Source of the DNA: Moniliella sp. 'wahieum'
Taxonomy: Eukaryota
DNA: 64,000 bases
Assembly (NCBI GenBank): GCA_003971905.1
Contig: RSEE01000023.1
Location: forward strand, 124,001 to 188,000
Direction: 5' to 3'
The translations under genes and the position numbers were made by a program. The notes beneath the pieces were generated by a model. The model ran no database searches, was not told the DNA's origin, and saw only the letters and a program-made list of their open reading frames with translations. Below are positions 13,739-60,220 of the stretch, in pieces (the first letter of the stretch is position 1; every line of letters starts with the position of its first letter).

Positions 13739-14896
13739 GGGAGGTGGGGGCTGGGCGGAAGTAGGGTTGGTTTGCCACCCCAAAGAATAATTCCATTCCG
13801 CCCCCTTCGGGCGAGGATGGGCGGCGTGCCGTGCCGCGGCCAGCGCGCCGGCCGATCCTCTCTGTCTGATCCTGGAAACGAGCGCGACGAGCCGGGCACA
13901 ATTCCAAGGCTGAATGGCCGTAGCGGTCAAGGTCGTCGAGCAGGGCTCCTTGTTGCGTGACGGATTGGGACGACCCACTTTTTGGGCGGCCTCTCGTACC
14001 GCCCGTGGTGTTGCGATTGAAGAGTGAGGAAATGACAGCGCTGAGCATCAGTGGACCTCCCAGACAGGCATATTGGTTGCCATACTATAGTTACAGGCGG
14101 GTAGGGAGGGGGAAGGTTGGAAAAGGAAAAGAGGGATGCAGAGAGGAGAGGTATAAGGGAAAAGTGCGCCAGCAATCGTTGATACGACCGATCCGATGCA
14201 AGCGAAACAATAATCAAGAGCAAGAGGTCCGAAGACGATAGGGATTGAATATTGATTGCTGGTGAGAAAGCAGACAGGACCGGATAGGGTGGAGGAGGAA
14301 GGTGGGAGAGAAGAGAGGAAAGACGAAGGATGCGATGACAGCCGTGGGTTGTAGAAGAAGGAGCGCAGCTTCCAGATCTTCGCCCAGGCGGAATCAGCGC
14401 GCTAGCTGCTGGGTGGGAGCCGTGGTAACGCCATAATGAGGCTATGCTCTTGACAGACCACACTTGTTCCAATACACGGCCAGGTCCCGGTTGTTGGTCA
14501 AGAAGTCGAGCTTCATCAGCTTCACCAGCTCCAAAAAGGGGTTGGGATGATCATCTCGATCACCGATCATCCGTCCATCGATCATCCGTTCATCCACCTC
14601 TGAGCCACCATCTATCATTAGTCTCCGCAGATGGGCGCCTACTGACATGGTCACTGGTTACCTCCACGTCGGGGTGCTCTCTGGTCCAGCTTACCGGCCC
14701 CAGCCGCGCCCCGGTTCTGCCGCCAATGGCGACGAATACCAGGCCCACTCGTGTCCAAGGGCGCGGCAACCAACTGCGTCCTAAACGCACCACCTGCTGA
14801 CGTAATGGCAGCCCCCCTCCAGGTGTAGGTGCTGTTACAGTGTGTGGGTCCCACCTCCGCATTGGATCCTACCAGCTCCCATTCATTGCTTCGAGT

Positions 14897-18891: not shown

Positions 18892-20186
18892 CATTCCGAT
18901 CCTGAATCGTTCTGGATAATCTCGACGGTGACGGCCAAGGGTGGATGCTGGGGAGGGAATGACACTGCATGCCAGCTGCTGTTCCCCCTTTTGGTTTTGT
19001 CCCACCTACCTTTCTTTAGCGTGAACCCCCGCCCACGTGCCATTTGATGGCATCGGCTTCTCTTGTTTCCTTCACGTTTCGCGGTCAGAAACCCATGACA
19101 CGCATTACCAACTGAGTGCGGCTGGGAAAACAGTATGATGAGACCTGGGAGAGAGGGATGTAATCGCACCAAGTGGTGGCGGTTGTGGTGGCCTAAACCA
19201 ATGAGCAACGCTGACATGGTACAGAGGAACATCAATAATTCCAACAGCAGTCGCCACCAAGGGCTAGACTCCGGAACAAGGAAAACAGAGACAAGAAAAC
19301 AACGCAACTCCTGGGCCTGAAGAGGGACCGGGGGGACGTTTTGGCCAAAAAAACGAGCCACCCGGTGGCTCAACGCATAAGTACAGATGGCAACTGGAGC
19401 CTTAGGTTCTCTCCCAAAGCACTGCTGTCATTCCTTTGCATTCTCATGCATCACGTGGTAGATATGGAGAGTACCTGAGTACTGACTGAGTACCTTCCCG
19501 ACGCGTTTGGTCATGAGGGAGGAGAGCGACAAAGCGAGACCGGGGTTGAAGATGGACAGAGAACATGGGATTTGCATGGGATCCCACGGCGGAGAAGGGA
19601 GATGGAAGACGGAAGACGGGAATCGGGAGGTGCGAGATGCGAGACGGGACGTTGGTTGGCCAGATGACCAAAAGAGTAAGGCCAAGCCACGAGCACAGCA
19701 GCGACCGGATGATCATCGACCCCCCGTACACCTACCAGGGCTGGCTGCCAAGCGCCAAGTGGCAAGGGCCACGTGACTCGTTCCCATGTTTGCAGACAGC
19801 CAAGCGCTCCTGCGCACTGTCGCACCAGCTCGCACCTGGCATGTCGGAGGATGCCGGGCATCGATCATCGATCATTGATAGACCGACCATCGATCACCGG
19901 AGTCCCCGATCATCGATCATCGACATCGATCATGAATATTGAATCATCGATCATCATGCATCAATCGGCGACCTCCTGCTGATCACCGATGACACACTCA
20001 TGATAGTCCTGGGTCTGATTAATGATTGGGGCGGGAAGAGTCGCCGGCGGGGGGCCCCGACGCGCAGCCGCAGGCAGCGGCCTGGAGGAGGTTAGAGCGG
20101 CCAGGTGCGATTGACGGAGCCGACAATGGTCGGGTGCTGGAATCCACTCACCGACTGGTTAGTCGCTCGCTACTTGAAGCGTGGCG

Positions 20187-20235
20187 CATGATGCATGATG
20201 CATGACGCGTGACGTGTGACGCGTCACGCGTGAAG
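20187..20235. repeat. Array of seven in-phase NN-TNA-NN heptamers (best example of a window-wide intergenic motif class)
   Basis: caTGAtg caTGAtg caTGAcg cgTGAcg tgTGAcg cgTCAcg cgTGAag. Five of the six junctions are 4-bp palindromes. Confidence 0.9.
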
Positions 20236-20940
20236 CTAAAGTGCACAACCCGCCGGACCGCGACAGCTCGCCCTCGGCCTCACATGTCAGTCACATTTGG
20301 CGCTTTGAAATTGAAGCTTGAAGCTGCGCTGAGCGCGCTGAGCTCTGCGTCCGGTTAGGCTAGTGCAGTGCGTCCACGGCGCTCGGTGGACGTTGAAGGC
20401 ATTGGATTCCATTATTTGCAGTGGGCAAGGCAGGCCAGGGCCCGCAGGGGGGCAGCGGACTCAATCTGGACCGAGTTTTTGTTTACCGTGCCGATCTCGG
20501 TCATCGATCATCGATCACTAGATCACTGACATTGTCGCTGGCAGCTTGAGGCGATGCATGGGACAGCCATTGTGTTGTACGCACCAGCGCGCAGCTGGGC
20601 AGACGAGGCCCACGCTTGGGCACAGTCGCCCCGTGGCGCCCGATGGCCGGGCGGGGGAGCAGGGGGGCAGCCAGGGCGCCGGCTGCAGGCGGGGCCTTGC
20701 AGAGGCGGAGCATGGCGTCTGCTGCTGGGCACTGCACTGGCCCTCGCCTCGCGCGCCCAGTGATATTGGTCGCAGATCGCACGCCTAGCGCAGTCCTATC
20801 GTCCTAGGCCCGCGGCGTGCTTTGTGCGTTTCCACCGAGTGCTTGCCACTTGGCTTCCCTTCGTTCCGTCCCTGTCATTCCGTCCCTCTCCCTTCCTTTC
20901 CTTCCCACCCCCAACCCCCATCCCCCCCACGGCCGCCGCC

Positions 20941-25497: not shown

Positions 25498-25813
25498 GTG
25501 GCACAGATGTGCCCCACCCAGGTCCTCCTTTGGGTGTCTCTTCGGCCTTTTGATGGCTCATTGCCTTATGGGGGCGGGAGTTTGAGAGAGAGGGGTGCAC
25601 TTTCCGCGCACTATATATACAAGACATACATTGGCTCTCCTCCTTACTGCGTCCGCGTCCATACACACCGTCAAAAGCGTGTAGTGTTATCATGGTGCGC
25701 TCGATAATTGGGTTTTTGGTTTCCACCACCCCTTTGCTGCTCTTCTTCTTCGTGTCTCTTTTGCCACTATGGATCCCTTTTTTTGTCCATCACACTTACT
25801 GTTACCTTGATCT

Positions 25814-25890
25814 TGTGAAAAGCCTTCATCGACTTATCTGTGAAAAGCCTTCATCGACTTCATCTGTGAAAAGCCTTCATCGACTTCATC
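25814..25890. repeat. Tandem repeat, 25-26-bp unit x3
   Basis: TGTGAAAAGCCTTCATCGACTT(C)ATC three times. Confidence 0.9.
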
Positions 25891-27441: not shown

Positions 27442-29346
27442 ATGCTCGCGTCTCAGCTCGTCGTGCTCGCCTGTGCGGCCCTGGTTTCTGCGTCGCCCCT
27501 GCACAACCCCCAGATCGAACTCGATGCGCTGGGCAACATGGTCTGGGACCTGGACGCCACCCCGTTGGCTCCTCTGCCTCTCAGTCCGGGTTCGCCACCG
27601 CCTCCCAGTCTTGGCCGGCCCGACTTTTCCCGCCCGGCTCAGCAGGCAGAAGAGTTCGCGGAGATGATGGCTCGGATTGGGCAGATGCACGCTCCCACGA
27701 TGCAGTCCGCCTCGGCCAAGAAGAACTGGCTCACGATGGCCTCGAAGCTGGGCCAGGCCCAGCGTGTCGCTTCGGGTTCATTGTCCAGGGCCAGACGCAG
27801 GTGAGAAACGTAGTGTACAACCAAATCCTCCACCCGCTCTTCCCAGACTACGCTTTGCGCATCACGACCGACTCGAACGGCATCAACAACCTCCCCGACG
27901 CGACCAAGGAGGCCGTGCTGCACGCAAGGGGCAGTGGCGCCTTTTGTGACCCCAACGTCAAGTCCGTCTCGGGCTACCTTGATGTATCGGAGAATCGTCA
28001 TCTCTGGTTTATTTTTTTCGAGTCGCGTGGAAAGCCTGGATCGGACCCGCTGGTGGTGCGTCTACTTAGGTCTGCGTTGTTGTACAGATGAGAGAACATC
28101 AAGCTAACTCATACTCTACTCTCCTTCCCAGCTATGGCTAAACGGGGGTCCTGGCTGTTCCAGTTCGACCGGACTGTTATTTGAATTGGGCCCTTGCCGG
28201 ATTGCTAACGAGACAGGGGTGGAGGACAACCCCCACTCCTGGACCAATGTGGCCAACATGATCTTCCTCGACCAACCGCAACGAGTGTGGGCTATTCGTA
28301 CAGTGACGAGCCGGGTGTGATCAACAATACTCCCGAGGCGGCAGTGGACGTGTACGCGTTCCTCCAGCTCTTCTTTGCTAAGTTCCCTCAATACGCCATG
28401 CTGGACTTTAGTATCGCCGCCGAATCGTACGGCGGGATCTACGCCCCCCACTTCAGCAACTACATTTGGAAAAAGAACCAAGAGTTGCATGCGGCCACTT
28501 CGGTGACTACGACTACGCCCCAGCCGCTGCTGATCAAGCTCGAGAGCGTAATCATTGGTAACGGGCTGACGGCACCGGCGATTCAGTTTCCTGCGGTGGT
28601 GAACTTTGCCTGTGGAGCGGAAAACAAGTACCGCATGTTTGATCCCGACAGCCAGACCTGTTCGGACTTGGCCTCCAAGGCGGACCTTTGCGCTACGCTG
28701 ATCCAAGAGTGCTCCAAGTACGACTCGCCGTTGATTTGCACGCCAGCGGCGCTGGTCTGTTGGGCCGGGCTCTACTGGCCTCTGCAGCAGACAGGACTGA
28801 ACATATACGATGTCCGGCGCTCGTGCGACCGCTCACCCGAAAAGGATGGCCCACTGTGTTACAAGGAATTGGAGTACGTGCAATCCTACCTCCCGGGCGT
28901 CAAGGCATCGCTCGGCGTGCCGGACTCGGTCGAGTTCCAGAGCTGCAACATGAAGGTCAATGGCGCGTTCCTCCTGCACGGGGACAATATGCACGATGCG
29001 TCGGAACTGCTGCTGCCATTGGTGGAGGATGGGGTGCGGGTGTTGATCTATGCTGGCGTGACCGACGCGATGTGCCCGGCAATTGGGATCGAGTGGTGGG
29101 TAGCAAACTTTCCCTCGGTGCTGCAGGAAGAGTATGGCCCGCAACGACGAGAAGGAGTGGCAAGTGGGAGGAAAGTCAGTGGGCACGGTACGCGCTGCAA
29201 GCCACAAGAGGGGGTCCAAGTCGTTTGGCGATTTGGCCTATGTCAGTGTATGGAACGCAGGTCACATGGTCCCATTTGATGCGCCCCAAGCCGCGCTGGA
29301 CCTCTTCTCCCACTGGCTCCGTAACAAGCCGCTTTCCACTGCCTGA
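27442..29346 (+). CDS. Serine carboxypeptidase S10 (carboxypeptidase Y-like) preproprotein
   Basis: Signal peptide, [52 protein letters not shown] nucleophile motif, [15 protein letters not shown]. Intron at ~28056-28131. Confidence 0.92.
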
Positions 29347-29502
29347 GCGCGGCCGACGGGGGGCAGCGGTTCGGCCTGCACATAATGCTCACACCGCCTG
29401 TGCGCGGGCGTTGAGGTGCGCAATGCCGATGGTGGCAGTGCGTGGGGACACGTATGGATGCGAGGCTGGAGGTGGTGGTTGGTCTGGCGATGATCGATGA
29501 AG

Positions 29503-29812
29503 CTCACTGAGCCGAGAATCCATGTATTCCGCGGTGATTCTGTGCCCCCTCCGTGGTATGCCGTAGCTTGGATTCCGTGGCATACCGTGTTCATACCGTG
29601 TCTATACCGTGCCCATACCGTGCCCATACCGTGTTCATACCGTGCTCGTACCGTGTTCATACCGTGCTCGTACCGTGTTCATGCCGTGCTGGTACCGTGC
29701 TGGTACCGTACCTACTATACCGTGCTCGTACCATGCTCGTACCGTGCTCGTACCGTACCTATATCGTGTCCATACCGGGCCAATACCGTGCCTATACCGT
29801 GTTCATACCGTG
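29503..29812 (+). mobile_element. Solo left end of a CTCACTGA-terminated TIR transposon (TIR plus 11-bp subterminal array)
   Basis: CTCACTGAGCCGAGAATCCATGTATTCCGCGGTGATT... aligns with the left end at 30552 through TTGGATTCCGTGGCATACCGTG, followed by ~20 units of TACCGTGYYCR. Confidence 0.85.
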
Positions 29813-30239
29813 TTGACTTCAAGGCGAAGGAATTGATTATGACGCTGAGCTTGTACAAAGGCAACGGAGCTACCGACGGTGGCACCGTCTTCAAGCGCGT
29901 TGAGGTCAAGGCCAACAAAACTCATCAGAGTTATCGGATGGACCGCTGGGAAGTGCAGGGGGTGCCAGCTCTACTCAATCCCGAGTTTGAAAAAGCCGTC
30001 CCGCGTAACCCCCGGTGCCAACTACTTGGCAGATGCCGATGACGGTGATGGTGGAGGGATACAAGTACTACTGGCACATGGTCAGTGAGAGCTACTGCTC
30101 AAAGTGCTTGGACACGGGGCACTCTGCTGCCAAAGGAGGATGTCCTTGGTCAAACGAAGCTGAGGTGGTGGTTAAAGCGACATCGCCCCCGGCTCCGAAG
30201 CCCGCAGTCAAAAAGAAGCCTGCGAAAAAAGGCCCGTAA
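29813..30239 (+). pseudogene. 5'-truncated ORF with CCHC zinc-knuckle-like motif (gag/LINE ORF1-like fragment)
   Basis: ...MPMTVMVEGYKYYWHMVSESYCSKCLDTGHSAAKGGCPW... (C-x2-C-x4-H-x6-C), then a Lys/Pro-rich tail. Starts abruptly at the transposon-end junction. Confidence 0.45.
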
Positions 30240-30639
30240 AAGGAGGGGCGAAAGGACCCGTGCGGTGGCTGCGTGAACAATGAGCAATATGTCGCTTAAC
30301 TGGTTTTGTGCGAGGGAAGACGGGAGGGCCCACGACCCTACCAGACGCCCAACCGAGCAGACTCCAGATGAAGGAGAACACGAGGGCTGAGGGAGGCCCT
30401 CAGGATGGGCACTGTTGAAGGCTACAGGGAGCGGCTGCGTGGTGCACAATCGCGCTGACCTGCGAGCATACTGTCCCTTAGACGTTAAACACTTACAAAT
30501 ACCCTATCTTACTATACTACAAAAATATGGATAATGGTCATGCAGATCATGCTCACTGATCCGAGGCTCCAGGTATTCCGCGGTGATTCCGTACCCCTCC
30601 CGTGGTATTCAGTAGTATTCCGTAGTTTGGATTCCGTGG

Positions 30640-31008
30640 CATACCGTGCCCGTTCCGTACTTCTCCCGTACCACTTCCGTACCTCTTCCGTACCTCTTCC
30701 GTACCACTTCCGTGCCCGTTCCGTACCACTTCCGTACTTCTTCCGTACCACTTCCGTACCACTTCCGTGCCCATTTCGTACCACTTCCGTACTTCTTCCG
30801 TACCACTTCCGCACCACTTCCGTGCCCATTTCGTACCACTTCCGTACCACTTCCGTACCACTTCCGTACCCATTTCGTACCACTTCCGTACCACTTCCGT
30901 ACCCGTTCCGTGCGCGTTCCGTACCCGTTCCGTACCCGTTCCGTACCTCTTCCGTACCTCTTCCGTACCTCTTCCGTACCTCTTCCGTGCCCGTTCCGTG
31001 TTCATACT
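30640..31008. repeat. Left subterminal array of 11-bp units
   Basis: About 30 units of TACCACTTCCG / TACCTCTTCCG / TACCCGTTCCG / TGCCCATTTCG. Confidence 0.9.
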
Positions 31009-31719
31009 GTTGTATTCTATGGGATAAGTGCGCCCCTCCATCTTGAAAAAAAAGTGAGAACGAAATCCATAGACACACCACACAGGTTAGAATTTTTTTC
31101 AACCACGGAAACACCACAGAACTCCACGGGTTACCAAGGGTTACCACGGGTTACCACGGAATGGAAATGGCGTCCTAGGGTTACACTAGGGTTAGCTTAT
31201 AAGCCTTAGGGTTAGCTTATAATGCAATGTATCGGTACAGGGTTACATTGCTCAATACTTTGGGGGCCTATATGCGGCCCTCACTAGCCTCATTGGCAGT
31301 TGTGTTACTTTAGATCCTTTAGATATATGGGACATCTCTGTTGGGCTAATAGTGATTGTATTACTAAGGGTGCTACGGGAGGCAAGCAAGGCAAGGCAAT
31401 ACTGGTGGAGAAGATGCATCAGGCCTCAGGCCGTTAATCAGGGAAACGCAGCGTGAAGGCGCAACAGGAAGGGGCAGAACAGGCAGAATGGGGCCGCCTC
31501 GCGCGCAAGTTCCATCCACAGCAATCGATCGTACCGTTGCTTGATATCACAAATGGTGGCATGCTCCCTTTGACATGCTATCGGTAATTCTCACTGCGGA
31601 AGTACGGGTTAACATACCAAGCACATCAGAGGTTGATATATGATACCAACATGCATACCATGTAAGTCAGTGCCCAAGCATGTAAGTACCCACTTGTAGG
31701 AAGAGGTTAGTACCCAAGA

Positions 31720-31823
31720 AGCAGATCAGTACTCCCAGCAGGTCAGTACCAGCAGCAGGTCAGTATACCCAGCAGGTCAGTACACCCAACAGCAGGTCAG
31801 TACACCCAGCAGGTCAGTACACC
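31720..31823. repeat. Internal tandem repeat, ~17-bp period x6
   Basis: AGCAGGTCAGTA cores at 31720 (variant), 31737, 31754, 31771, 31791 and 31808. Confidence 0.85.
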
Positions 31824-32099
31824 TAGCAAAGACAGTACGGGGACGATTGGTTGGTCGCCACAGGACAGCAGGCATCAGTTGTTGAGATGCCGACAGATCT
31901 TTGGTTAGCACCTTACCCCAGTTTTGGTCTTCGGTTGGTCTGCAGGAAAGTGTGGAAATATTAGTGATAGGCATGTCGGGAAGGCGGTTGTTAGGGAAGA
32001 GGAGACCGGTGTGGAGGGGGGGAGGGGGGGGGGGGTATATATATCATTCAACTGTGAAAGGGGCGGTAAGAGGAGGACTGATGCAACAAGAGCAAAAGC

Positions 32100-33205
32100 A
32101 GTGTGGTTCTGGTGGGAAGGTGCACAGACCAGTAACGCCGACGCACGGACCCCCCACAGCTCAGCATATTAGCCCTGCGCTGTGCGTGTGGGAACAGCCC
32201 CTGGCAACCTCCGCAGCATACCCACACGCCACCGAGCTCCGAGAGCTCCTGGCGCCTCAAAGAGCTCTAAACGTACCATTTATTACGTCCCAACAGTCCT
32301 GCTGAGCCACCGGGTGGCCCGTGCTTTTGCCAACGTCCCTTCAGGTCCTCCTCAAGCCGGCCTAGGAGTTCCGTTTTGTTTCCTCCCTCCTGGTTGTCCT
32401 TGGTCCGCAGTTTTGCCCCTGGTGGCGACTCGCTGTCTGAAGCTTGATGCTCCTCTGTAGGGGTTGCTGGTTGACTTAGACCACCATCACCACCACCACC
32501 ATCAGTGCGATTGTATCACCCTCGAGGACCATCCAGACTCCAGGTTTCATCAAAAGTCCACCCATCCGAGGGCCGGCACATGTACGCTCCTGTGGAGTAT
32601 ATACTAGCCGTGTGCGATGCGGCAAAATGAGGCCCCGGGAACGTCCGCGGAGCTCCAAAGGAGTACATATCACCCTCTGGCCCTCATGATGGTCCACTCT
32701 CCACGTCTTCGCCAGGTTTTCCCCTCGGTCCTCTCCATCATCATGTCCGCCTCCTGGTCCGCCCCCTGGTCCGCCCCCTGGAGTCGTTTACTCTCTTCAG
32801 ACCACGGTAATGTACAACATCGCTGACGCTAAAGCACAGCAAGCACATCTATGGCAAGTGTGTCCGGCGAGCGAGCGTGCCGCCCTTGCGATATTGTTGG
32901 GCGCAAGAGGCATGGGGTGGGGTATATTGGCCAACGACACAATCCCTCTGAAATTTGCCCGCTGCTGGGCGACGGAAGCGATGATATTGATACCATCCAT
33001 TCTCCGTTGCGCATACCCGAAGACTGGGTCAACTGCAGAGTACACACGCACAAGAGCTTGAAGACCATGGGTCAGTCGCAAGCCAGAATTTTTTCAAGGC
33101 AGATACAGGATGGCCGACATTACCTCAACCTGAAAGCGCCTCTCATCATCATATGTGCCCTTCCTTTCATCCTGTTGAGCCCATGCACACCACCTTTCTC
33201 AATCT
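32100..33205 (-). pseudogene. 5'-truncated accessory ORF of the transposon
   Basis: KVVCMAQQDERKGTYDDERRFQVE-[GT..CTGAC..AG intron ~33123-33057]-ALVRVYSAVDPVFGYAQRRMDG...RGIVSLANI, then a Gly/Asp/Pro-rich low-complexity tail. Lies inside the TIRs. Confidence 0.45.
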
Positions 33206-33232
33206 GAGAAGAACGGTCTACGTGATCCAAGA

Positions 33233-34481
33233 TTGCCCATACATTTGGGTGCCGCCCATGTTGACCTTTTTAACGAGTTTCAGATGAAGTGTGCGTCCTC
33301 ATTCCCGAAACAGTTGTGTTTCTTATACTGATTGAATGAGCTAACCTTGAAACACAGGTCGATTAGGTTTCTTCCTTCTTCGTTTTGTAGTGGAGTGCCT
33401 CGTTCGATTGGTTCTGCTTGTAACAGCGGCATGCGCATGTTTGAGATTGCAGTCATATGAGTTGCATGCTTTATCCGTTCGTCAAGTTGCATTATCTGCC
33501 TCAGCAGATACTCGATCTGGGGAGCGTGATGCTTAGGCTGTTTGTCAACGGAAAATGTATGCTGCCGACGTCGAACGTCTCCGAACAACGGCCCTGCCAT
33601 TTTGTCAACGGTTTCACGACTTCACTGTTCCAAACGGTCTGAACGAAGAGATCAACCACATTCGATCTCGGTGCACAACACTCTTCATTGGGCTGACAAC
33701 ATGTGGAGATACGGCAATTGGCAGGCGATATGGACCGCCCCGGCAGAATGGGAACAGGGATGGTTGGGCCGCCATATCCGTTCGTTTACCAAACCGTATC
33801 CTGTCCTTGCTAACGAGGCGAGCAGGAGGAACCAGGATAACTTGGTTGGCATTCGCATGGATTCCATGCTCCCCCAAGCTATGACCACACTTTCGGTTGG
33901 GTTGAATCACAAACGAGAAGCTATTATTGATGGGCTCGATGGTGCAAGGGGGGATGCGGCGTTGCTGTGCTCGTTCAACATTGACCCTACCGCCCATTTA
34001 TCGATCTGGGCAGTAGCCGAGTGGGGGCCAAAAATGAGAACAGGCAACGTGTTCGAGGGCAACAGGGTCAGAATGCCTCGTCCCGTCTAGGACACTGTGT
34101 GCAACTACTCACAACAAATGCAGGCATTGTATAGCAATTGGCGCACGATGGGCACTTTTTCATGTTGATTGACTACTACATTGGGGTGGAGACCGATGAA
34201 GCGGGCTCCGAATACTACATTGTTGGTAGAACTCATCCGATTGATGCTGAAGGTAATGCGTCTCTACCACGCGATGAACAAGGCTTTCACAGAGCGACGT
34301 TCGCATCAGTAAACAACATTGTCGTCCCACTTGCCGACATTGGGTGGGTCATGGGACACATACCCTTGAGAAGGAAGTTCTGAGTTCGGATGCATTAGCA
34401 CGAATTGCAGCGGATGACGACGTTTCTGACGAGGAGGTTTGGATTTACCCTCACCCATTGGGTGCCGAACTTGGTGTCTGA
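33233..34481 (+). pseudogene. C-terminal half of an EnSpm/CACTA(CMC)-like DDE transposase
   Basis: Stitched: RFLPSSFCSGVPRSIG...DVERLRTTALPFCQRFHDF...ISVHNTLHWADNMWRYGNWQAIWTAPAEWEQGWLGRHIRSFTKPYPVLAN. This matches the EnSpm pattern LPSxF.R.PR ... HxxxH...G....WxxPxER..G.L. Intron at ~33292-33357. The N-terminal catalytic region is absent. Confidence 0.7.
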
Positions 34482-35279
34482 CAAAAAACACTATAAGTGT
34501 TGCGTGTGCCAAGGTACATTTTATTCCCGAGGAAAAGAGAAGGGAAAACAATATGCGTGCTGCCTTTGTTGGGTACTGTTTTGTTGGTGAAACGAAACGG
34601 AAATCAAATGGAGATCGGCATCAGAAATGCACAGTGGAACTGGAAGCTATCAAGCACTGGGATCGATCGAAGACGAAGGCTCACGAGCAGAAGCTGTTGG
34701 CATAGGTGCAAAAGAGACACGCAGAAGACTGCTATTGTAGGTGTATAAGGTGCTAAGCGCTCTTAGCCTTGAAAAGGATTGAGTGAGAGTGCTGCTGCCC
34801 TTTTGCACTCTACCATTTTTTCTCCAAGCCCAACGCCGGGCTAACGATTCTTCTTCCGAGTGTGCTCCCAAGTCGCACGCTCGCAAGTGTCAGTGTTGGC
34901 GAAGGGGGAACGGTGGCTAAGGTGGCGAAGGTTCCACGGTGGCTACGGTGGCGACCAAGCACCAGCTGGGGCTTCGCGTCGGCCCGGTGGTCTCCTTGTG
35001 GGTGATAAAATCCTCCAGCGTGGAACGGTGGGCCGGTGGCTACGGTGGCGAGCAAGCACCAAGCACCAAGCTGGGGCGAAGCCCCAGCTGGCCGGGCCGT
35101 AGGCCCGGTGGTCTTCTAGTGAAATTTCATTACTTGATTGCCAGGTCGAAATTTTTGCACGCTCGCAAGTGTTGCTCTTTCTCAACATTTCATTGCAGTA
35201 ATGAAATTTGATTACCGATTGCCAGGTCGAGATTTTTGAGCCTGACTCTTTCCTTGAATTTCTAGCCGCCTCGCAAAAC

Positions 35280-35460
35280 CCACCACGGAACACTCCGACA
35301 TACCGCGACATGGCACGACATGTCGCGGACTACCACCACATGTCGCGGAATACCACGGAACACCACAACATACCACGGAACGAAAAAAAGATCAAGACCC
35401 GATGGCCACGAAATGACACGGATTCACCACGACATACACGACATACCACGACATACTACG
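35280..35460. repeat. Right subterminal array of ~10-bp units
   Basis: Repeated ATACCACGGA / ACATACCACG / ACACCACGGA-like units, in inverted orientation to the TCCGTGGTAT units of the left end. Confidence 0.75.
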
Positions 35461-35519
35461 GAATACCACGGAAGGGGTACGGAATTACCGCGGAATACCT
35501 GGAGCCTCGGCTCAGTGAG

Positions 35520-35724
35520 GATCATGTTCTCTGGATATACGGGGCCATCAAAATAGTGTAAAAGAGCCCTGCATAGTAGTAAGTCCATCTAATCCACGGC
35601 ACAACAACTGTAACAGAGAAAAAGGAGTAGCCTGATCTGTGGCTGTTTCCACTACTAAGATCATGTTCTCTGCATATACTCGGGACCATCGAAAATAGTG
35701 TAAAAGAGCCCTGCATACTAGTAT
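35520..35724. repeat. Diverged ~62-bp direct repeat, 139-bp spacing
   Basis: GATCATGTTCTCTG.ATATAC..GG.CCATC.AAAATAGTGTAAAAGAGCCCTGCATA.TAGTA at 35520 and 35659. Confidence 0.85.
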
Positions 35725-35919
35725 ACAAGTGAGCCAATAGGTTCAACTTCATCAACCACATCAAGATGCATTGTATTATTATCGTGGTTCTCAAAGCTAA
35801 TGACCGTGCATGCCTCAGTGCGGACTGGTATATACAGAGTAACTACAATCCCAGTGTGGCGTCCTTCTTTCTCGTCCGACCTCGACAATCACAAAGAGGC
35901 GGAGAGGAGAAATACTTGT

Positions 35920-37961
35920 TCAATGGACAAATCGGAAGTCCAGACGCTCGTTGCCCTGTCCTCTGGGTCTTGATTAGTGCGCCTTGTCGGTGGCCGACAT
36001 GCGGCCCCAGACCTTGTCCCTCTTCTTGTTGAGCAAGCGTAGAAGAGCTTCGTGCCGCCATAGAGGAAGAAGTTGATGGTGCAGACTGCCAACAAGCCGG
36101 CATTGGCGTGCCGGTAGCCATCTTCTCATCCGAGGGGCGGTACACTTGACTCCCGATGATGGACGTGATCTGGACAGAGATGTTGTACAAGCTGGTGGCC
36201 ACCGTGCGTGTGGCTACATCACCAGAGTTGGCGCTGACCCAGGACGCTTGGATCGCATGCACATACGGTGCCGACAGCGCCGTGGTCACCACCGCATAGT
36301 ACTTCCATGCGTATCTTTTGTCCCCAGTCGCTCCCGACGGCATGGCCAAGAGCGCCACCAGGCACGGCCACGCCCACATATCCTCTGTCATGCACAGCAG
36401 GGTTCGTTGATTGAACTGTTCCGCCAGGATGGCGACCGTCAAGCCAGTAAAGACCTGGACAAGGTTGTTGACGCTAGACAAGGTCTGGGTGACAACCGTA
36501 GAGAAGCCCAACTTCTTCAGGTTGATGGTCAAATACGCGTTGATGGGTGAGGTGGGAAGGCCAAAACTGACCCCGATCACATACATGGGCCACATGCGGT
36601 AGTTGCTGACGGCGCGCCACAAGCTCTTGCGGTCCAAGCCTTGTCGGTTGTGCATCGACGACTTTTGCGGCTCATCGCGCAGGATGCGCGCAACGGCAAT
36701 CTTAGCTTCCCGGTCGTTCAGGAACCCGTACGACTTGCCCGGACGAGCAGTTTGAGAGGGGGAGGCAGGCATCACGTAAAACGCCACAAACGAGACCAAG
36801 ATGGTCAGGAGCCCCCCGAGCAAAAAGACCCAGTAGGGTGCCGGGTAGCCGGGCACCGACTTGATTTGCAAAAAGCCCAGATTGATGTAGTTGGCCAAGA
36901 ACAAAGTAAAGTTGAGAACACACCAAAAGAGACCAAGCCGGGTAGTAAGTTCCGAGCCACGGTAGAAGAAACTGAGCAGCAGCACTTGAAAAGCGAGAGA
37001 AGCACAGGTTAGGGCGATGTAGACATGGTTATTGTCAACGGGGGCAGGTTTAGAGACGTACAAATGTCAGGGATGAAGGAACCTTGGCACAATCCCAACG
37101 CGGCACGCAAAACAAAGAAACTCTTTCGACCTTTGATGAAGAACTGGCAGGCCGTTACTACGCCCCAGGCAAACATTTGGAAGGGGATAAAGCGATCGGG
37201 GCCGACACGCTTCGACAACAGCTGTCCGGGCAACTCGGCGCTCAAGAAAGCCAGGTAAAAGATGGTTTGGCCGTTGTTGAAGTCTTTCTTGGAGAGATTG
37301 CTGTGTTCGAGAAATCCAGCCGAATTGGCACTGGAAATATTGGAACGGTCTGAAGAAGCCGCGAGTTAGGCAACTGGTTTCGTACACGACAAGGGATGGT
37401 GCACTTACCGAGATTGAGCAGGGCAAAAAAGAGAGCACACCATGCAAAGACGTTCAAATCAATCTTGCGAATCACTTGGGCCTCTTCCCTCCAGGTCCAG
37501 CGAAGGCTTGGGTCCCAGTTCTTCTTGTTCCCCAACTGTCAGGAGGTTCATACACAGAGCATAGCTCCGGAATGTCAAACACACTCGGTTGGGTGGCAGT
37601 GCTGTCCAAGTCCCGGGGTGCCGGGCGGTTTTTGCGAGGTCGGAGATAGTCCAAGATCTTGCTCGCCACAGGCGGGTCTGGCGACAAGGTGGGATCGATT
37701 TTGAGAAGTTCTTGCGCCTCTGCTTCGGTCAGACCACCCACCCGTGTCGTTGTCACCACCTCATTAACTCCTTCTGAGAGGGAGGGAGAGAGAAGCGCCG
37801 TCGGAGTAGGCATCGGTGCCTTTGGTCGAGATGGCATCCTTGTTAATGATGCTCTCCTGGTCGAAGTCCTCCCTTTGCGTATGACCTAGCTGAGGCGTGA
37901 TGTCCTCCGACTCGGCTGGGTTGACGTCGCGGACGTCGATGGTGGCCTTACCCCCAGACAT
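35920..37961 (-). CDS. MFS anion:cation symporter (Dal5 family, Soa1/YIL166C-like)
   Basis: ATQPSVFD, WDPSLRWTWREEAQVIRKID, DRSNISSA, AELPGQLLSKRVGPDRFIP, ELTTRLGLFW, RILRDEPQKSSMHNRQGL, C-terminal GNERLDFRFVH*. At least two introns. Confidence 0.88.
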
Positions 37962-57392: not shown

Positions 57393-60220
57393 TAGGAGGC
57401 GGGGGTATCGGGATGATGTCGATGATGAGAATTCCTGAAGCCTGAGGGCTTCAGAGAGATGGAGAGGAAGAAAACAGGGGGCGGGGGGGGGGGGCGGGTA
57501 ACCGGTAACCGATGACTTGGACCATATAGCATGCGGGGAAGCGGTAGAGGAAGATATAGCTAGTGACCGGTGACGCGTTACGCGTTACGCATCATGTTAG
57601 CGCCTGTTACATGATAGCGCTTAGCGCTCAAGCGTGCTTGGTAGCGCCTAGGTGGTTACTATATCCGACGGTTACTGAGGTTTCCTCCAAATTTGCTATT
57701 TACTCTAGCCCCTAGGGCCACTAGCACCAACCGAACTAAGTGCTAAGTGCTGATCGCGCTGGTCAAGCATGCTTTCCCAACAGGGGGGTGGGGGGTACCG
57801 GGTACCGGTTACCCCGTGTTGCCAGTATGTCTGTCACATGCAGCGTCACACATGTCACACTCTCGGTATGCCCAACAACCCCGTCCGTTGGGGCTTTTTG
57901 GTCTTACAATAGGCCGAGGGAGTGGATACTAGAGAGCTCGCCCCACGGCGGTTGTTGCGCCCGCGTGGCAGGGCGTGGCAAGTGGAGGTGCTCATTAACA
58001 TTGTGGGGGCGATTCGCGTGGGAGCTGGTAACTCCGGTAACTGGTAACTGAATACTGTCTGACTGGGCCCGGTGGACGCTGCAATCCCTCTCCGCTTGCC
58101 TCATCGGTCACTCATCGATGACCATCGATTCTACCAGCAGTTGGCCAAGATGACACCGCTGCAATGGTGAGACATCTCGGCCCGCCGGCGGCCGCCGGCC
58201 CAGGGTCCAGCAAATCCCTCGCTGCGGCAGAGACCACTTTTGAAGGTAGGGTCACGGGTGATCAGTGACCATCACTGACGCGTGACGACGCTTAAAGGTT
58301 TTGAAGCTCTCCATTTCCCACATGTGCCCCTGATCGCCTGGGCGTCGGAGCTACGGTCTGCCATGGCACTGCGCCTTGCCCGGAGGAAGGCGGTTGGGGA
58401 AGCGTACGCATAGGAAAGCTGTAGCTTAACAGTCGGAAGCAGAAGCAAGTCCTGAAGGAGGCAAATGATTAGGCTGGCAGAGGAGGTAGACACGGTTTCC
58501 GAAGAAAACGAAGGAGGATTACCTGATTGCTAACAAGAGGACAGTCACAAAGCGCTACAATGCGAGACACAAGTCGGCCCGTGGGCAGAGTAAGAGATGG
58601 CGCTGACGCGTGACGAGCGACAGTGACTAGTGCCTAGTGACCAACTAGTGGCCTAGTGACACGCGCGCATTACCGAAGACACGCCACGGGGCCAGTGACT
58701 TTGGAATGACTAGTGACTGCCCCGGGGAGGCAGGGGCACATGCAGGGGGCATGCCGGGTGCCGTGGGGCCCCACTTCAGCACAGGCGCCGTGCTTCCTTT
58801 GCTGCTTGGCGCAGCGCGTGAGCAACTGGATCCTCGGAGTCTGTGATTGAGCCCTGATCGATGATCATCGATCATCTATCACGCAGCCATACGCCAGGCC
58901 CCAGCCCACTCAGTTACCCAATAACCAAATGCTGCGCAATGCGGCTCAGCGCCGGAGCAGTGTACCTGGCTGGGCATGGATGGAGAGTGCATCCCTGAAT
59001 CCTGGGGCAGGTGGTTCGAAGTTGGCTGAGCGCGGGCAGGGCTGAGCGGCTGAGCAGCGCTGACCAGTGACTAGTGCGGCCTAGGGCCGCGGATCGAGGC
59101 TAACTGGGTGACCGCGGTGGCTGGGAGCCAGCAACTGGTAACTGTTGCTGGCTGGGTACCTGGGTGCACAGGCTCAGCGGCCAGCACGAGAGTCGAGTAC
59201 GACCGCATACGAAGTATATTGGTACTGACCTGGTGCCGTACCTACTGAACGTTGGACGCTAGACGATGGACGTTGGACGAGCGCAGCCGACGTCTGCGCT
59301 GGGCGGCAGCAGGCGGCAGTTGAGCAGCAGCGGCGGCTAGTGGGGATGCGAAATGCGCGGCCCGCCAGCCAGCACACACACCATCATGCCATGTCGCATG
59401 TCGGCAGCAGCATCGCGTGCCAACAATACTGCCCCCGTGGCTCGGCTGGGCGGCGCAGGCACCGCTGGCACTGCTCGCGCTCCTGTCTCCACGATCCAAT
59501 CCCCCGGCTCTTCCCGCACTGTGCGCATCACACACCAGCCATCACGCATGGCATGTATCAGTGCAAGAGGCGCCAGGAGGAGCCCCAGGGAGCCCCACAC
59601 TTTCTCGCATCTGCGTGGCACTGCGCCGCAGTCTGCCGCACTGCCCGCCTGTGCGTCCCTCCTTTTTCCGTTCGATGTTCGCCGCCGCCCAGACACGCCC
59701 AGACATGGTGTTGCGATGCATGTGCCCCCCAGTGCTGCCACCCCCTGCTCCTCCCCGTGCCCGCACACGCTGCAAGCTCAGAGTGACACCCACCATCCAA
59801 GACCTCAACGTCTCAACGCCTCAACCACTCAGTCCTCCAGTCGCTCCACAGCCACCGAGCCCCCCCCCTCGGCCACCAGCTCACCGGCCACAACTCACGG
59901 GCATCACCGGTCACTCCACGCTGCTAGCCCTTGGCGCTTACTAGCCCCCCCCCCGTCACGCTAGTCGTCATACACGTCATAGCTGTGTAACCATGTAACC
60001 GGTGACCGGTGACCCAACCTGGCCACATTCCCCCGCCACACTCGGCCGGCTCCAGCCACAATCCCACCCGAACAACCCCCCCTCCCTCCCCGGGTATAAA
60101 ACCTGACAGTAGTCGTCCTGGTCACTCATCCTTCTCTTACCCTCTTGGCTACTCTTCCGTTCTCCCACCTCTTCCAGTACCCGCATTGTTCTCTTCCATC
60201 CACGCATCCATCACCAGCAC

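Follow-up and report, generated by a model that had tools for sequence, protein, structure and literature searches.

A probable decayed DNA transposon with CACTA-like ends and a 7-bp flanking duplication in Moniliella sp. 'wahieum'

Results

A ~5-kb interval of the Moniliella sp. 'wahieum' genome bounded by long inverted ends (30552-35519, 4,968 bp) is probably a decayed cut-and-paste DNA transposon bearing terminal inverted repeats (TIRs), which carries the 7-bp target-site duplication (TSD) of one insertion and cannot move by itself. Its ends, with a CACTG-containing tip and subterminal arrays, are CACTA-like, and its duplication length is that of KDZ, hAT7, and P elements. Judged by the starts of the published consensuses that could be searched, it appears to form a new family among elements of an already known kind; because its superfamily is not settled, the claim of a new lineage is unproven. 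All positions refer to the window, the 64,000-nt stretch of contig RSEE01000023.1 (124,001 to 188,000) that we analyzed (Table 1).

Table 1. Features of the element and of the adjoining solo end (window coordinates)
Feature	Position	Strand	Evidence or remark
Solo left end of a related element, 11-bp array CATACCGTGCT, 20.8 copies	29503..29812	+
Small coding-like ORF directly after the array of the solo end	29838..30238	+	17.1 bits coding score
Left copy of 7-bp duplication GATCATG	30545..30551	none	identical to 35520-35526
Left TIR	30552..30618	+	67 nt, 4 mismatches vs right end; 32-nt unique tip
Left subterminal array, 11-bp unit, consensus TTCCGTACCAC, 31.5 copies, single orientation	30653..30999	+	TRF, 83% matches
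Core-motif cluster, opposite orientation, 10-bp unit CCACGGGTTA, 3.6 copies	31124..31159	+	tandem-repeat search and motif counts
17-bp minisatellite, internal	31704..31828	+
Other dispersed repeat inside the element, ~232 bp	32303..32535	+	second copy 19151-19372, reverse, 72% identical
Stop-poor + frame 2, candidate decayed transposase ORF	32690..34087	+
73-codon stretch, + frame 1	34150..34368	+	codon usage score 10.3 bits (60 codons)
Block of short direct and inverted repeats, internal	34897..35121	+
Right subterminal units, 10-bp spacing, core motif inverted vs left end	35286..35472	-
Right TIR	35453..35519	-
Right copy of 7-bp duplication GATCATG	35520..35526	none

Ends, flanks, and genomic setting

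The left end and the reverse complement of the right end match without gaps over 67 nt, with mismatches at positions 9, 34, 48, and 60, and repeat-finding extends the inverted arms to 84 nt at 88% identity. In the left TIR, a tip of 32 unique nucleotides starting with CTCACTGA is followed by the first subterminal units. This tip occurs three times in the window (0 expected from 100 shuffles), as the left end, the right end, and a solo end at 29503, and no second paired copy, empty site, or autonomous copy turned up in the sequences that could be searched. All three ends open with CTCACTGA, placing CACTG at tip positions 3-7. GATCATG abuts both tips of the element directly, and flank comparison could not extend the duplication in either direction; the chance of 7/7 identity at fixed boundaries is 6e-5. 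The original prediction had described 67-bp TIRs with 4 mismatches, an exact GATCATG direct repeat on both sides, two extra bases before CACTG, subterminal arrays, and GATGAAG ahead of the solo end, and all of these were recovered by end alignment, inspection of the flanks, or a tandem-repeat search that detected arrays at both ends and at the solo end.

The arrays near the two ends repeat a TTCCGT-type motif, direct at the left end and inverted at the right one, with an 11-bp period equal to one helical turn; subterminal arrays near both ends are expected of EnSpm/CACTA elements. Within 30600-30999 we counted 35 occurrences of CCGT and none of ACGG (window background, 0.51 and 0.37 per 100 bp), and in bins covering 35200-35599, which reach 80 bp beyond the element end, nine of ACGG and none of CCGT. 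The right units are far fewer than those on the left and include 10-bp tandem units at 35406-35470. The solo end, whose tip is 83% identical to that of the full copy and whose 11-bp array spans 29581-29812, is directly preceded by GATGAAG (29496-29502), and is best read as a truncated left end, from a related element, that adjoins the full copy. The ORF behind it carries one frameshift, is rich in Cys and His in its C-terminal part, matched no Pfam family and resembled nothing in the interior of the full copy.

The insertion lies in the spacer where two host genes converge, an upstream one for a serine carboxypeptidase and a downstream one that is MFS-like, and no RNA gene was found at or near the site. 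Neighboring protein domains (Peptidase_S10, COG7, Pkinase with KA1, Duc1, MutS_I, GT20/trehalose phosphatase, and MFS) point to a fungal host context. In one metagenome run, some short contigs were identical to pieces of the interior and others were diverged with loose ends, indicating that the source organism has multiple copies of the family or of parts of it.

Interior of the element

The left boundary of the dispersed repeat is sharp at 32303, and a metagenome contig departs exactly at 32304; diverged copies of the block at 34897 occur elsewhere in the source organism, as metagenome records with loose ends. The interior is a mosaic holding at least one foreign repeat, so the ends and the ORF are not necessarily cognate. 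Two frames of 32690-34620, + frame 2 and one on the minus strand, are significantly stop-poor (P(min<=12)=0.029 in 1000 dinucleotide shuffles, none of which had a second-lowest count <=13). There are 12 stops in the 643 codons of + frame 2, compared with 23.8 +/- 4.6 in shuffles; over 32690-34481, 10 of the 12 stops of the best + frame are TGA and the longest open stretch is 186 codons. Within the interior, host-like codon usage was confined to the 73-codon stretch in + frame 1, which had no match in protein or Pfam searches.

The original prediction had proposed a transposase remnant with an EnSpm-like catalytic core. Its motif string, H-x3-H ... G ... W-x2-P-x-E, does occur, once, within the stop-poor + frame 2 (33674-33748): H-x3-H lies at 33674-33688 and the E at 33746-33748, 20 residues past the second H, a spacing that we take to resemble RAG1/Transib-type cores. 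Other parts of frames 2 and 3 may resemble Tnp2 motifs. No search identified this frame as a transposase, and the 33233-34481 protein proposed as one unit mixes three frames. When six frames were read through their stops, Pfam, which includes Transposase_21, DUF4218, KDZ (or CxC), Plavaka, hAT (dimerization), MULE, and THAP/P families, gave no match at E<=1. Three word-based protein searches (748, 650, and 8000 candidates scored) gave no hit, a full HMMER search with the minus-strand stop-poor frame gave no significant match, and neither did PDB sequences or two metagenome scans; + frame 2 itself was covered by Pfam and by word-based, PDB, and metagenome searches. The EnSpm-like core thus gained support from no computed result.

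Superfamily assignment

The element may, with low probability, belong to a lineage related to CACTA/Mirage/Chapaev (CMC) that makes 7-bp instead of 2-5-bp duplications and has two extra bases before CACTG, in which case + frame 2 would be its dead cognate transposase. CACTG within all three tips and the CACTA-style arrays fit such a lineage, as do the H-x3-H and following E in the sole stop-poor + frame, where C-x2-C strings also lie 45-70 residues upstream. The bare motif, however, is expected by chance at ~0.02 per element (a rough estimate, for a pattern picked after reading), and the mosaic interior weakens its tie to the ends. PF02992 and PF13960 are, we assume, the relevant CACTA families, and a frame with 12 stops should still match PF02992 if its ancestor did, yet neither Pfam, including Transposase_21, nor the word-based searches gave any signal. 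PMC4592977 lists H(3)H and C(2)C among the signature motifs of CMC, and divergent CMC transposases can evade database searches, as with CNEST of Cryptococcus, for which PMC12810828 gives no Repbase match. Fungal EnSpm/CACTA elements such as CNIRT6 of Cryptococcus neoformans and the rust EnSpm families share with this one a CACTG in the tip, a length of several kilobases, and arrays of 10-12-bp subterminal repeats, direct and inverted; the window also holds an H(3)H-then-E string in a decayed ORF. In contrast, CACTA or CACTG opens EnSpm/CACTA termini and their TSDs are 2-5 bp (typically 3 bp), whereas CTCACTG opens these ends and the duplication is exactly 7 bp in one insertion; CNIRT6 (PMC12810828) has 24-bp TIRs starting with CACTG and 3-bp TSDs, and the CMCT lineages are reported with 2-5-bp TSDs and CA..TG termini (PMC12730594).

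Doubtful, too, is the broader proposal of an undescribed fungal branch of CACTA/Mirage/Chapaev/Transib-related transposases with a 7-nt stagger (vs 2-5 nt), a near-palindromic tip, and a GAT-N-A-type target preference. The 9-bp near-palindrome, CTCA-C-TGAG, stands ahead of the usual CACTG, and a TNA center is seen at two flanks (GATCATG and GATGAAG). If such a branch exists, the genome's GATCATC-type 7-bp microsatellites could partly be excision footprints.

Membership in the KDZ group (Kyakuja/Dileera/Zisupton), whether as a dead or as a non-autonomous copy, is rather unlikely; these are the fungal transposons known for 7-8-bp duplications, a length that the single GATCATG pair matches. TSDs of 7 bp in Kyakuja and 8 bp in Zisupton and Dileera (PMC12730594), the fungal and mostly basidiomycete distribution of KDZ, with a wide occurrence in Basidiomycota (PMC5751038), and the long TIRs (139-241 bp) and 4-8-bp TSDs of Cryptococcus KDZ1-3 (PMC12810828) agree with such a membership. 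On the other side, described Kyakuja elements have CA..TG termini and no TIRs, and no consensus in the PMC12730594 supplement, as far as starts are visible, begins with CTCA. KDZ1-3 measure 9-11 kb (PMC12810828), compared with 4,968 bp and 67-bp TIRs here, about half the length of described autonomous KDZ elements. No KDZ transposase with CxC zinc domains was detected by Pfam in the six frames, yet a non-autonomous copy needs none, so that this absence is compatible with a non-autonomous KDZ copy. With fungal Kyakuja, 7-bp hAT7, and Cryptococcus KDZ elements (long TIRs, 4-8-bp TSDs) in print, the original description of the element as undescribed is weakened where it rests on TSD length. Among the published consensuses that could be searched, none has a start like that of this element.

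A hAT7-like or P-like origin, both groups making 7-8-bp duplications, is improbable. P elements have 7-8-bp TSDs, which the length here fits; no THAP or P-transposase family was matched by Pfam. The repeated core holds CCGT/ACGG, similar to the subterminal hexamer of Ac, and hAT elements in general carry short subterminal repeats. The rusts that host hAT7 have AT-rich genomes, compared with 50-64% G+C in this window. Duplications of hAT elements are 8 bp, or 7 bp in the hAT7 families of Pucciniales, which cluster with Ac/Tam3 (PMC12730594) and, like this element, have short repeated subterminal motifs. Against this, hAT tips are CA/TA-initial (hAT7-1_PGr starts CAACGG), their TIRs are usually far shorter than 67 nt, and no hAT domain, including the dimerization domain, was matched by Pfam in any frame; P elements are reported from no more than a few fungal isolates (PMC5751038). 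Dada, which occurs in Laccaria, shares duplications of 6-7 bp, but it lacks TIRs, and its targets are snRNA or tRNA genes. Mutator-like elements make TSDs of about 9 bp or more, unlike the 7 bp here, and no MULE family was matched.

Least probable is that the GATCATG identity wholly or partly predates the insertion, the element having landed in or beside GATCAT-type repeats with a shorter true duplication or none: the right flank recurs as a 66-bp copy, starting exactly with GATCATG, at 35659-35726 (139 bp downstream), the window has 25 occurrences of GATCATC/GATGATC where ~8 are expected (including a 13.6-copy 7-bp array at 19859-19955), and GATGATC GATGAAG precedes the solo end, so that part of the identity could in principle pre-exist, but the immediate flanks have no 7-bp periodicity, no partition at the CACTG tip gives a 2-4-bp repeat (GCT vs AGG), and the identity of the three ends begins exactly at CTCACTGA.

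Mechanism and significance

For a cut-and-paste transposon of this kind, a DDE-type transposase, supplied in trans or formerly encoded by the stop-poor + frame 2 ORF, would bind the 32-nt tips, and the phased subterminal repeats, bound by the transposase or a helper protein, would allow the ends to be paired. The enzyme would then excise the element and insert it where the target is cut with a 7-nt stagger, and gap repair would leave the 7-bp duplication.

The length of the duplication counts as a trait of the superfamily, since it mirrors the geometry in which the active sites of the transposase meet target DNA. If real, a CACTA-related enzyme that staggers its cuts by 7 nt would widen the known range of its clade and add one more within-superfamily shift beside hAT5/6/7 and the 4-8 bp of KDZ. 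As found, the element is a single dead copy from a TIR family yet to be classified, of use for no more than the repeat annotation of Moniliella sp. 'wahieum', and it illustrates that end architecture and duplication length may indicate different superfamilies when the transposase is missing.

Ends and target-site duplication

Aligned without gaps, the left end of the element, read from 30552, and the reverse complement read back from 35519 agree at 63 of 67 positions, and these terminal inverted repeats (TIRs) delimit a copy of 4,968 bp. A repeat finder returned arms of 84 nt at 88% because its alignment runs on through six bases of the flank, which is partly palindromic. Immediately outside both tips stands GATCATG, with no further matching base on either side; at fixed boundaries, a seven-out-of-seven match has a chance of 6 × 10−5. 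With the ends set at CACTG...CAGTG, no partition yielded a 2–4-bp repeat (GCT vs AGG).

An 11-bp unit is repeated 31.5 times behind the left end, and another 11-bp unit 20.8 times behind the solo end, the left end of a related element at 29503; at the right end there are a few units of 10 bp. The array core shows polarity: positions 30600–30999 hold 35 CCGT and no ACGG, and the bins at 35200–35599, which extend 80 bp beyond the element's end, hold 9 ACGG and no CCGT (window background 0.51 CCGT and 0.37 ACGG per 100 bp). The window contains the 32-nt tip three times (twice in the element, once at 29503) and 100 shuffles not once, and in a three-way alignment identity starts exactly at CTCACTGA in all three ends. 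The evidence from TIRs, flanks, tip and arrays therefore bears out, as written, the structural part of the original prediction, namely the TIRs, the 7-bp direct repeat, the subterminal arrays and the solo end. What lies between the flanks is a genuine, if decayed, DNA transposon of the TIR type; its 7-bp target-site duplication (TSD) is known from one insertion.

Positions of the element, its neighbours and associated repeats in the window
Feature	Position	Strand	Remarks
Element	30552-35519
GATCATG copies	30545-30551, 35520-35526		Immediately outside the tips
Carboxypeptidase ORF	3' end at about 29276-29500		Left neighbour, 3' end towards element
MFS-like ORF	35846-37066	Opposite to carboxypeptidase ORF	Right neighbour, 3' end towards element
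Small ORF	29838-30238	+	Directly behind solo end's array; one frameshift
GATCATC/GATGATC-type 7-bp microsatellites	19859-19955, 14546-14580, 20497-20520, 58860-58870
Right-flank stretch	35520-35585, 35659-35726		Second copy 139 bp downstream
Dispersed repeat, ~232 bp	32303-32535, 19151-19372		Second copy in reverse orientation

Genomic setting and a truncated relative

The genes of the window are fungal, comprising Peptidase_S10, COG7, a Pkinase-KA1 kinase, a cyclin, Duc1, MutS, a GT20/trehalose-phosphatase gene, MFS transporters and PQ-loop. The solo end is 83% identical to the end of the full copy, and no right end for it was found in the window; the solo piece is therefore a truncated relative, and the 5-kb copy landed into or beside it. 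The sole TCAGTGAG found, at 30082, was rejected as its right end, having neither arrays nor a matching flank. The small ORF behind the solo end has host-like codon usage (29821–30000 scores 17 bits), matches no Pfam family and has no counterpart within the full element; it may have served the truncated relative as a helper gene or been captured by it. Its C-terminal part is Cys/His-rich and closes in a lysine/proline tail.

A possible target preference and flanking repeats

Of the seven positions of the solo end's flank, GATGAAG, five agree with GATCATG (chance 0.013), A2, T3 and A5 among them, so the two flanking sites hint at a target preference. GATCATC/GATGATC 7-mers are enriched in the window (25 occurrences), among them an array of 13.6 copies; the unit is one base off the duplicated GATCATG. 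These microsatellites may reflect a target preference or have originated as footprints.

It is possible, though unlikely, that the flank identity is in part older than the insertion, because GATCATC-type 7-mers are enriched, the 7-mer directly before the solo end's flank is GATGATC, and 66 bp of the right flank recur downstream at 35659, the similarity starting exactly at GATCATG. Against this, the immediate flanks of the element are not periodic. The downstream copy was also considered as a paralogous empty site and set aside, its left side being unrelated.

Two further repeats were noted in the window: a 26-bp tandem repeat at 25806–25890 (3.3 copies at 95%) and, in the intergenic stretch 20180–20235, CATGATG/CATGACG units that run into a GTGACGCGTCACGCGTG palindrome.

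The interior of the element

The copy of the ~232-bp dispersed repeat that lies inside the transposon is 72% identical to the outside copy, and an end of the repeat starts with the palindrome TGAGCCACC-G-GGTGGCTCA. Exactly at the repeat boundary, 32304, a metagenome contig departs from the element, which marks the repeat as a small mobile or repeated element of its own.

Between 32690 and 34620, + frame 2 has 12 stops in 643 codons, mostly TGA, and one minus-strand frame (P0002) has 13, vs 21–25 in the other four frames and 23.8 ± 4.6 in dinucleotide shuffles. Among 1000 shuffles, the minimum was 12 or fewer in 2.9% and the second-lowest count 13 or fewer in none. A long ORF was formerly present in this stretch. 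A full HMMER search of P0002 against 1.84 billion representative proteins gave no matches, which leaves + frame 2 as the candidate coding frame; P0002 is probably its antisense.

The EnSpm-like transposase remnant of the original prediction stood up in part: its motif string is present once, in + frame 2 (H-x3-H at 33674; W-x2-P-x-E ending at 33748, with the E 20 residues past the second H), but no search retrieved a homologue. The frame matched no Pfam family at E ≤ 1, and across nine interior ORFs and six frames of 31000–35400 (stops as X) the sole Pfam match was FlhC at E 0.14, a chance match. Word-based protein searches of + frame 2 (650 and 8000 candidates scored) and of + frame 1 gave no match, comparison of + frame 2 with PDB sequences gave noise alone, and none of 60 pattern matches to its peptide in JGI metagenomes was confirmed. 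An AlphaFold2 model of a 186-residue open stretch had a mean pLDDT of 29 and was set aside with no fold search. Elsewhere in the window no transposase was found by Pfam, which gave host genes only for 160 of the 216 ORFs of at least 110 aa and 13 further sequences; the other 56 ORFs were element-internal ones covered by the six-frame scan, second-half ORFs shorter than about 148 aa, or ones among the 13 sequences.

Is + frame 2 a remnant of a CACTA/Mirage/Chapaev (CMC) transposase? In its 20-residue H-to-E spacing, and in some stretches nearby, the frame may resemble Tnp2/RAG1-type cores, which we take as a lead. A frame with so few stops, however, ought still to match Transposase_21 if its ancestor did, and the interior is a mosaic that includes the ~232-bp repeat copy. 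PMC4592977, citing Yuan & Wessler 2011, gives H(3)H and C(2)C as signature motifs of CMC elements.

Other copies

The tip pattern had no match in JGI metagenomes. One of the three sequencing runs listed matched the element, sharing 0.10 of the words and yielding 10 short contigs (74–215 bp; 5 at ≥99% identity) that reached no junction, contained no joints and yielded neither an empty site nor information on flanks; they do show pieces of the interior, of which some are identical and others diverge and have loose ends. One food-metagenome run contains five short contigs, at depth 2–3, that are 99–100% identical to interior pieces (30825–33949), so either the source organism or the element occurs there in low abundance.

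Comparison with known transposons

In the available parts of the published surveys, 2–5-bp TSDs and CA..TG termini are given for the CMCT clade, EnSpm and Plavaka included; Kyakuja has 7-bp TSDs and CA..TG ends without TIRs, Zisupton and Dileera have 8-bp TSDs, and rust hAT7 has 7-bp TSDs, hAT7-1_PGr beginning CAACGG (PMC12730594); none of the consensus sequences in the available part of that supplement begins CTCA. CNIRT6 is described with a CACTG tip, 24-bp TIRs and a 3-bp TSD, CNEST with a CACGG tip, a TA TSD and no Repbase match, and KDZ1–3 (KDZ, Kyakuja/Dileera/Zisupton) with 139–241-bp TIRs and 4–8-bp TSDs (PMC12810828). Reports of P elements in fungi are confined to a handful of isolates, and Basidiomycota commonly carry KDZ and CMC elements (PMC5751038). 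Dada, which has 6–7-bp TSDs (PMC3706591), lacks TIRs and targets small-RNA genes, whereas the element has TIRs and Rfam and tRNA scans found no RNA gene here. No CACTA-type family with a 7-bp TSD was described in the full texts searched, which covered few subscription journals and did not extend to Repbase.

The families compared do not include that of the element. No transposase evidence decides between a CACTA-like element and a KDZ, hAT7 or P element, and that the element represents the CMC-related 7-bp lineage originally proposed seems to us rather unlikely. The architecture of the ends speaks for a CACTA-like element, the length of the duplication for KDZ, hAT7 or P.
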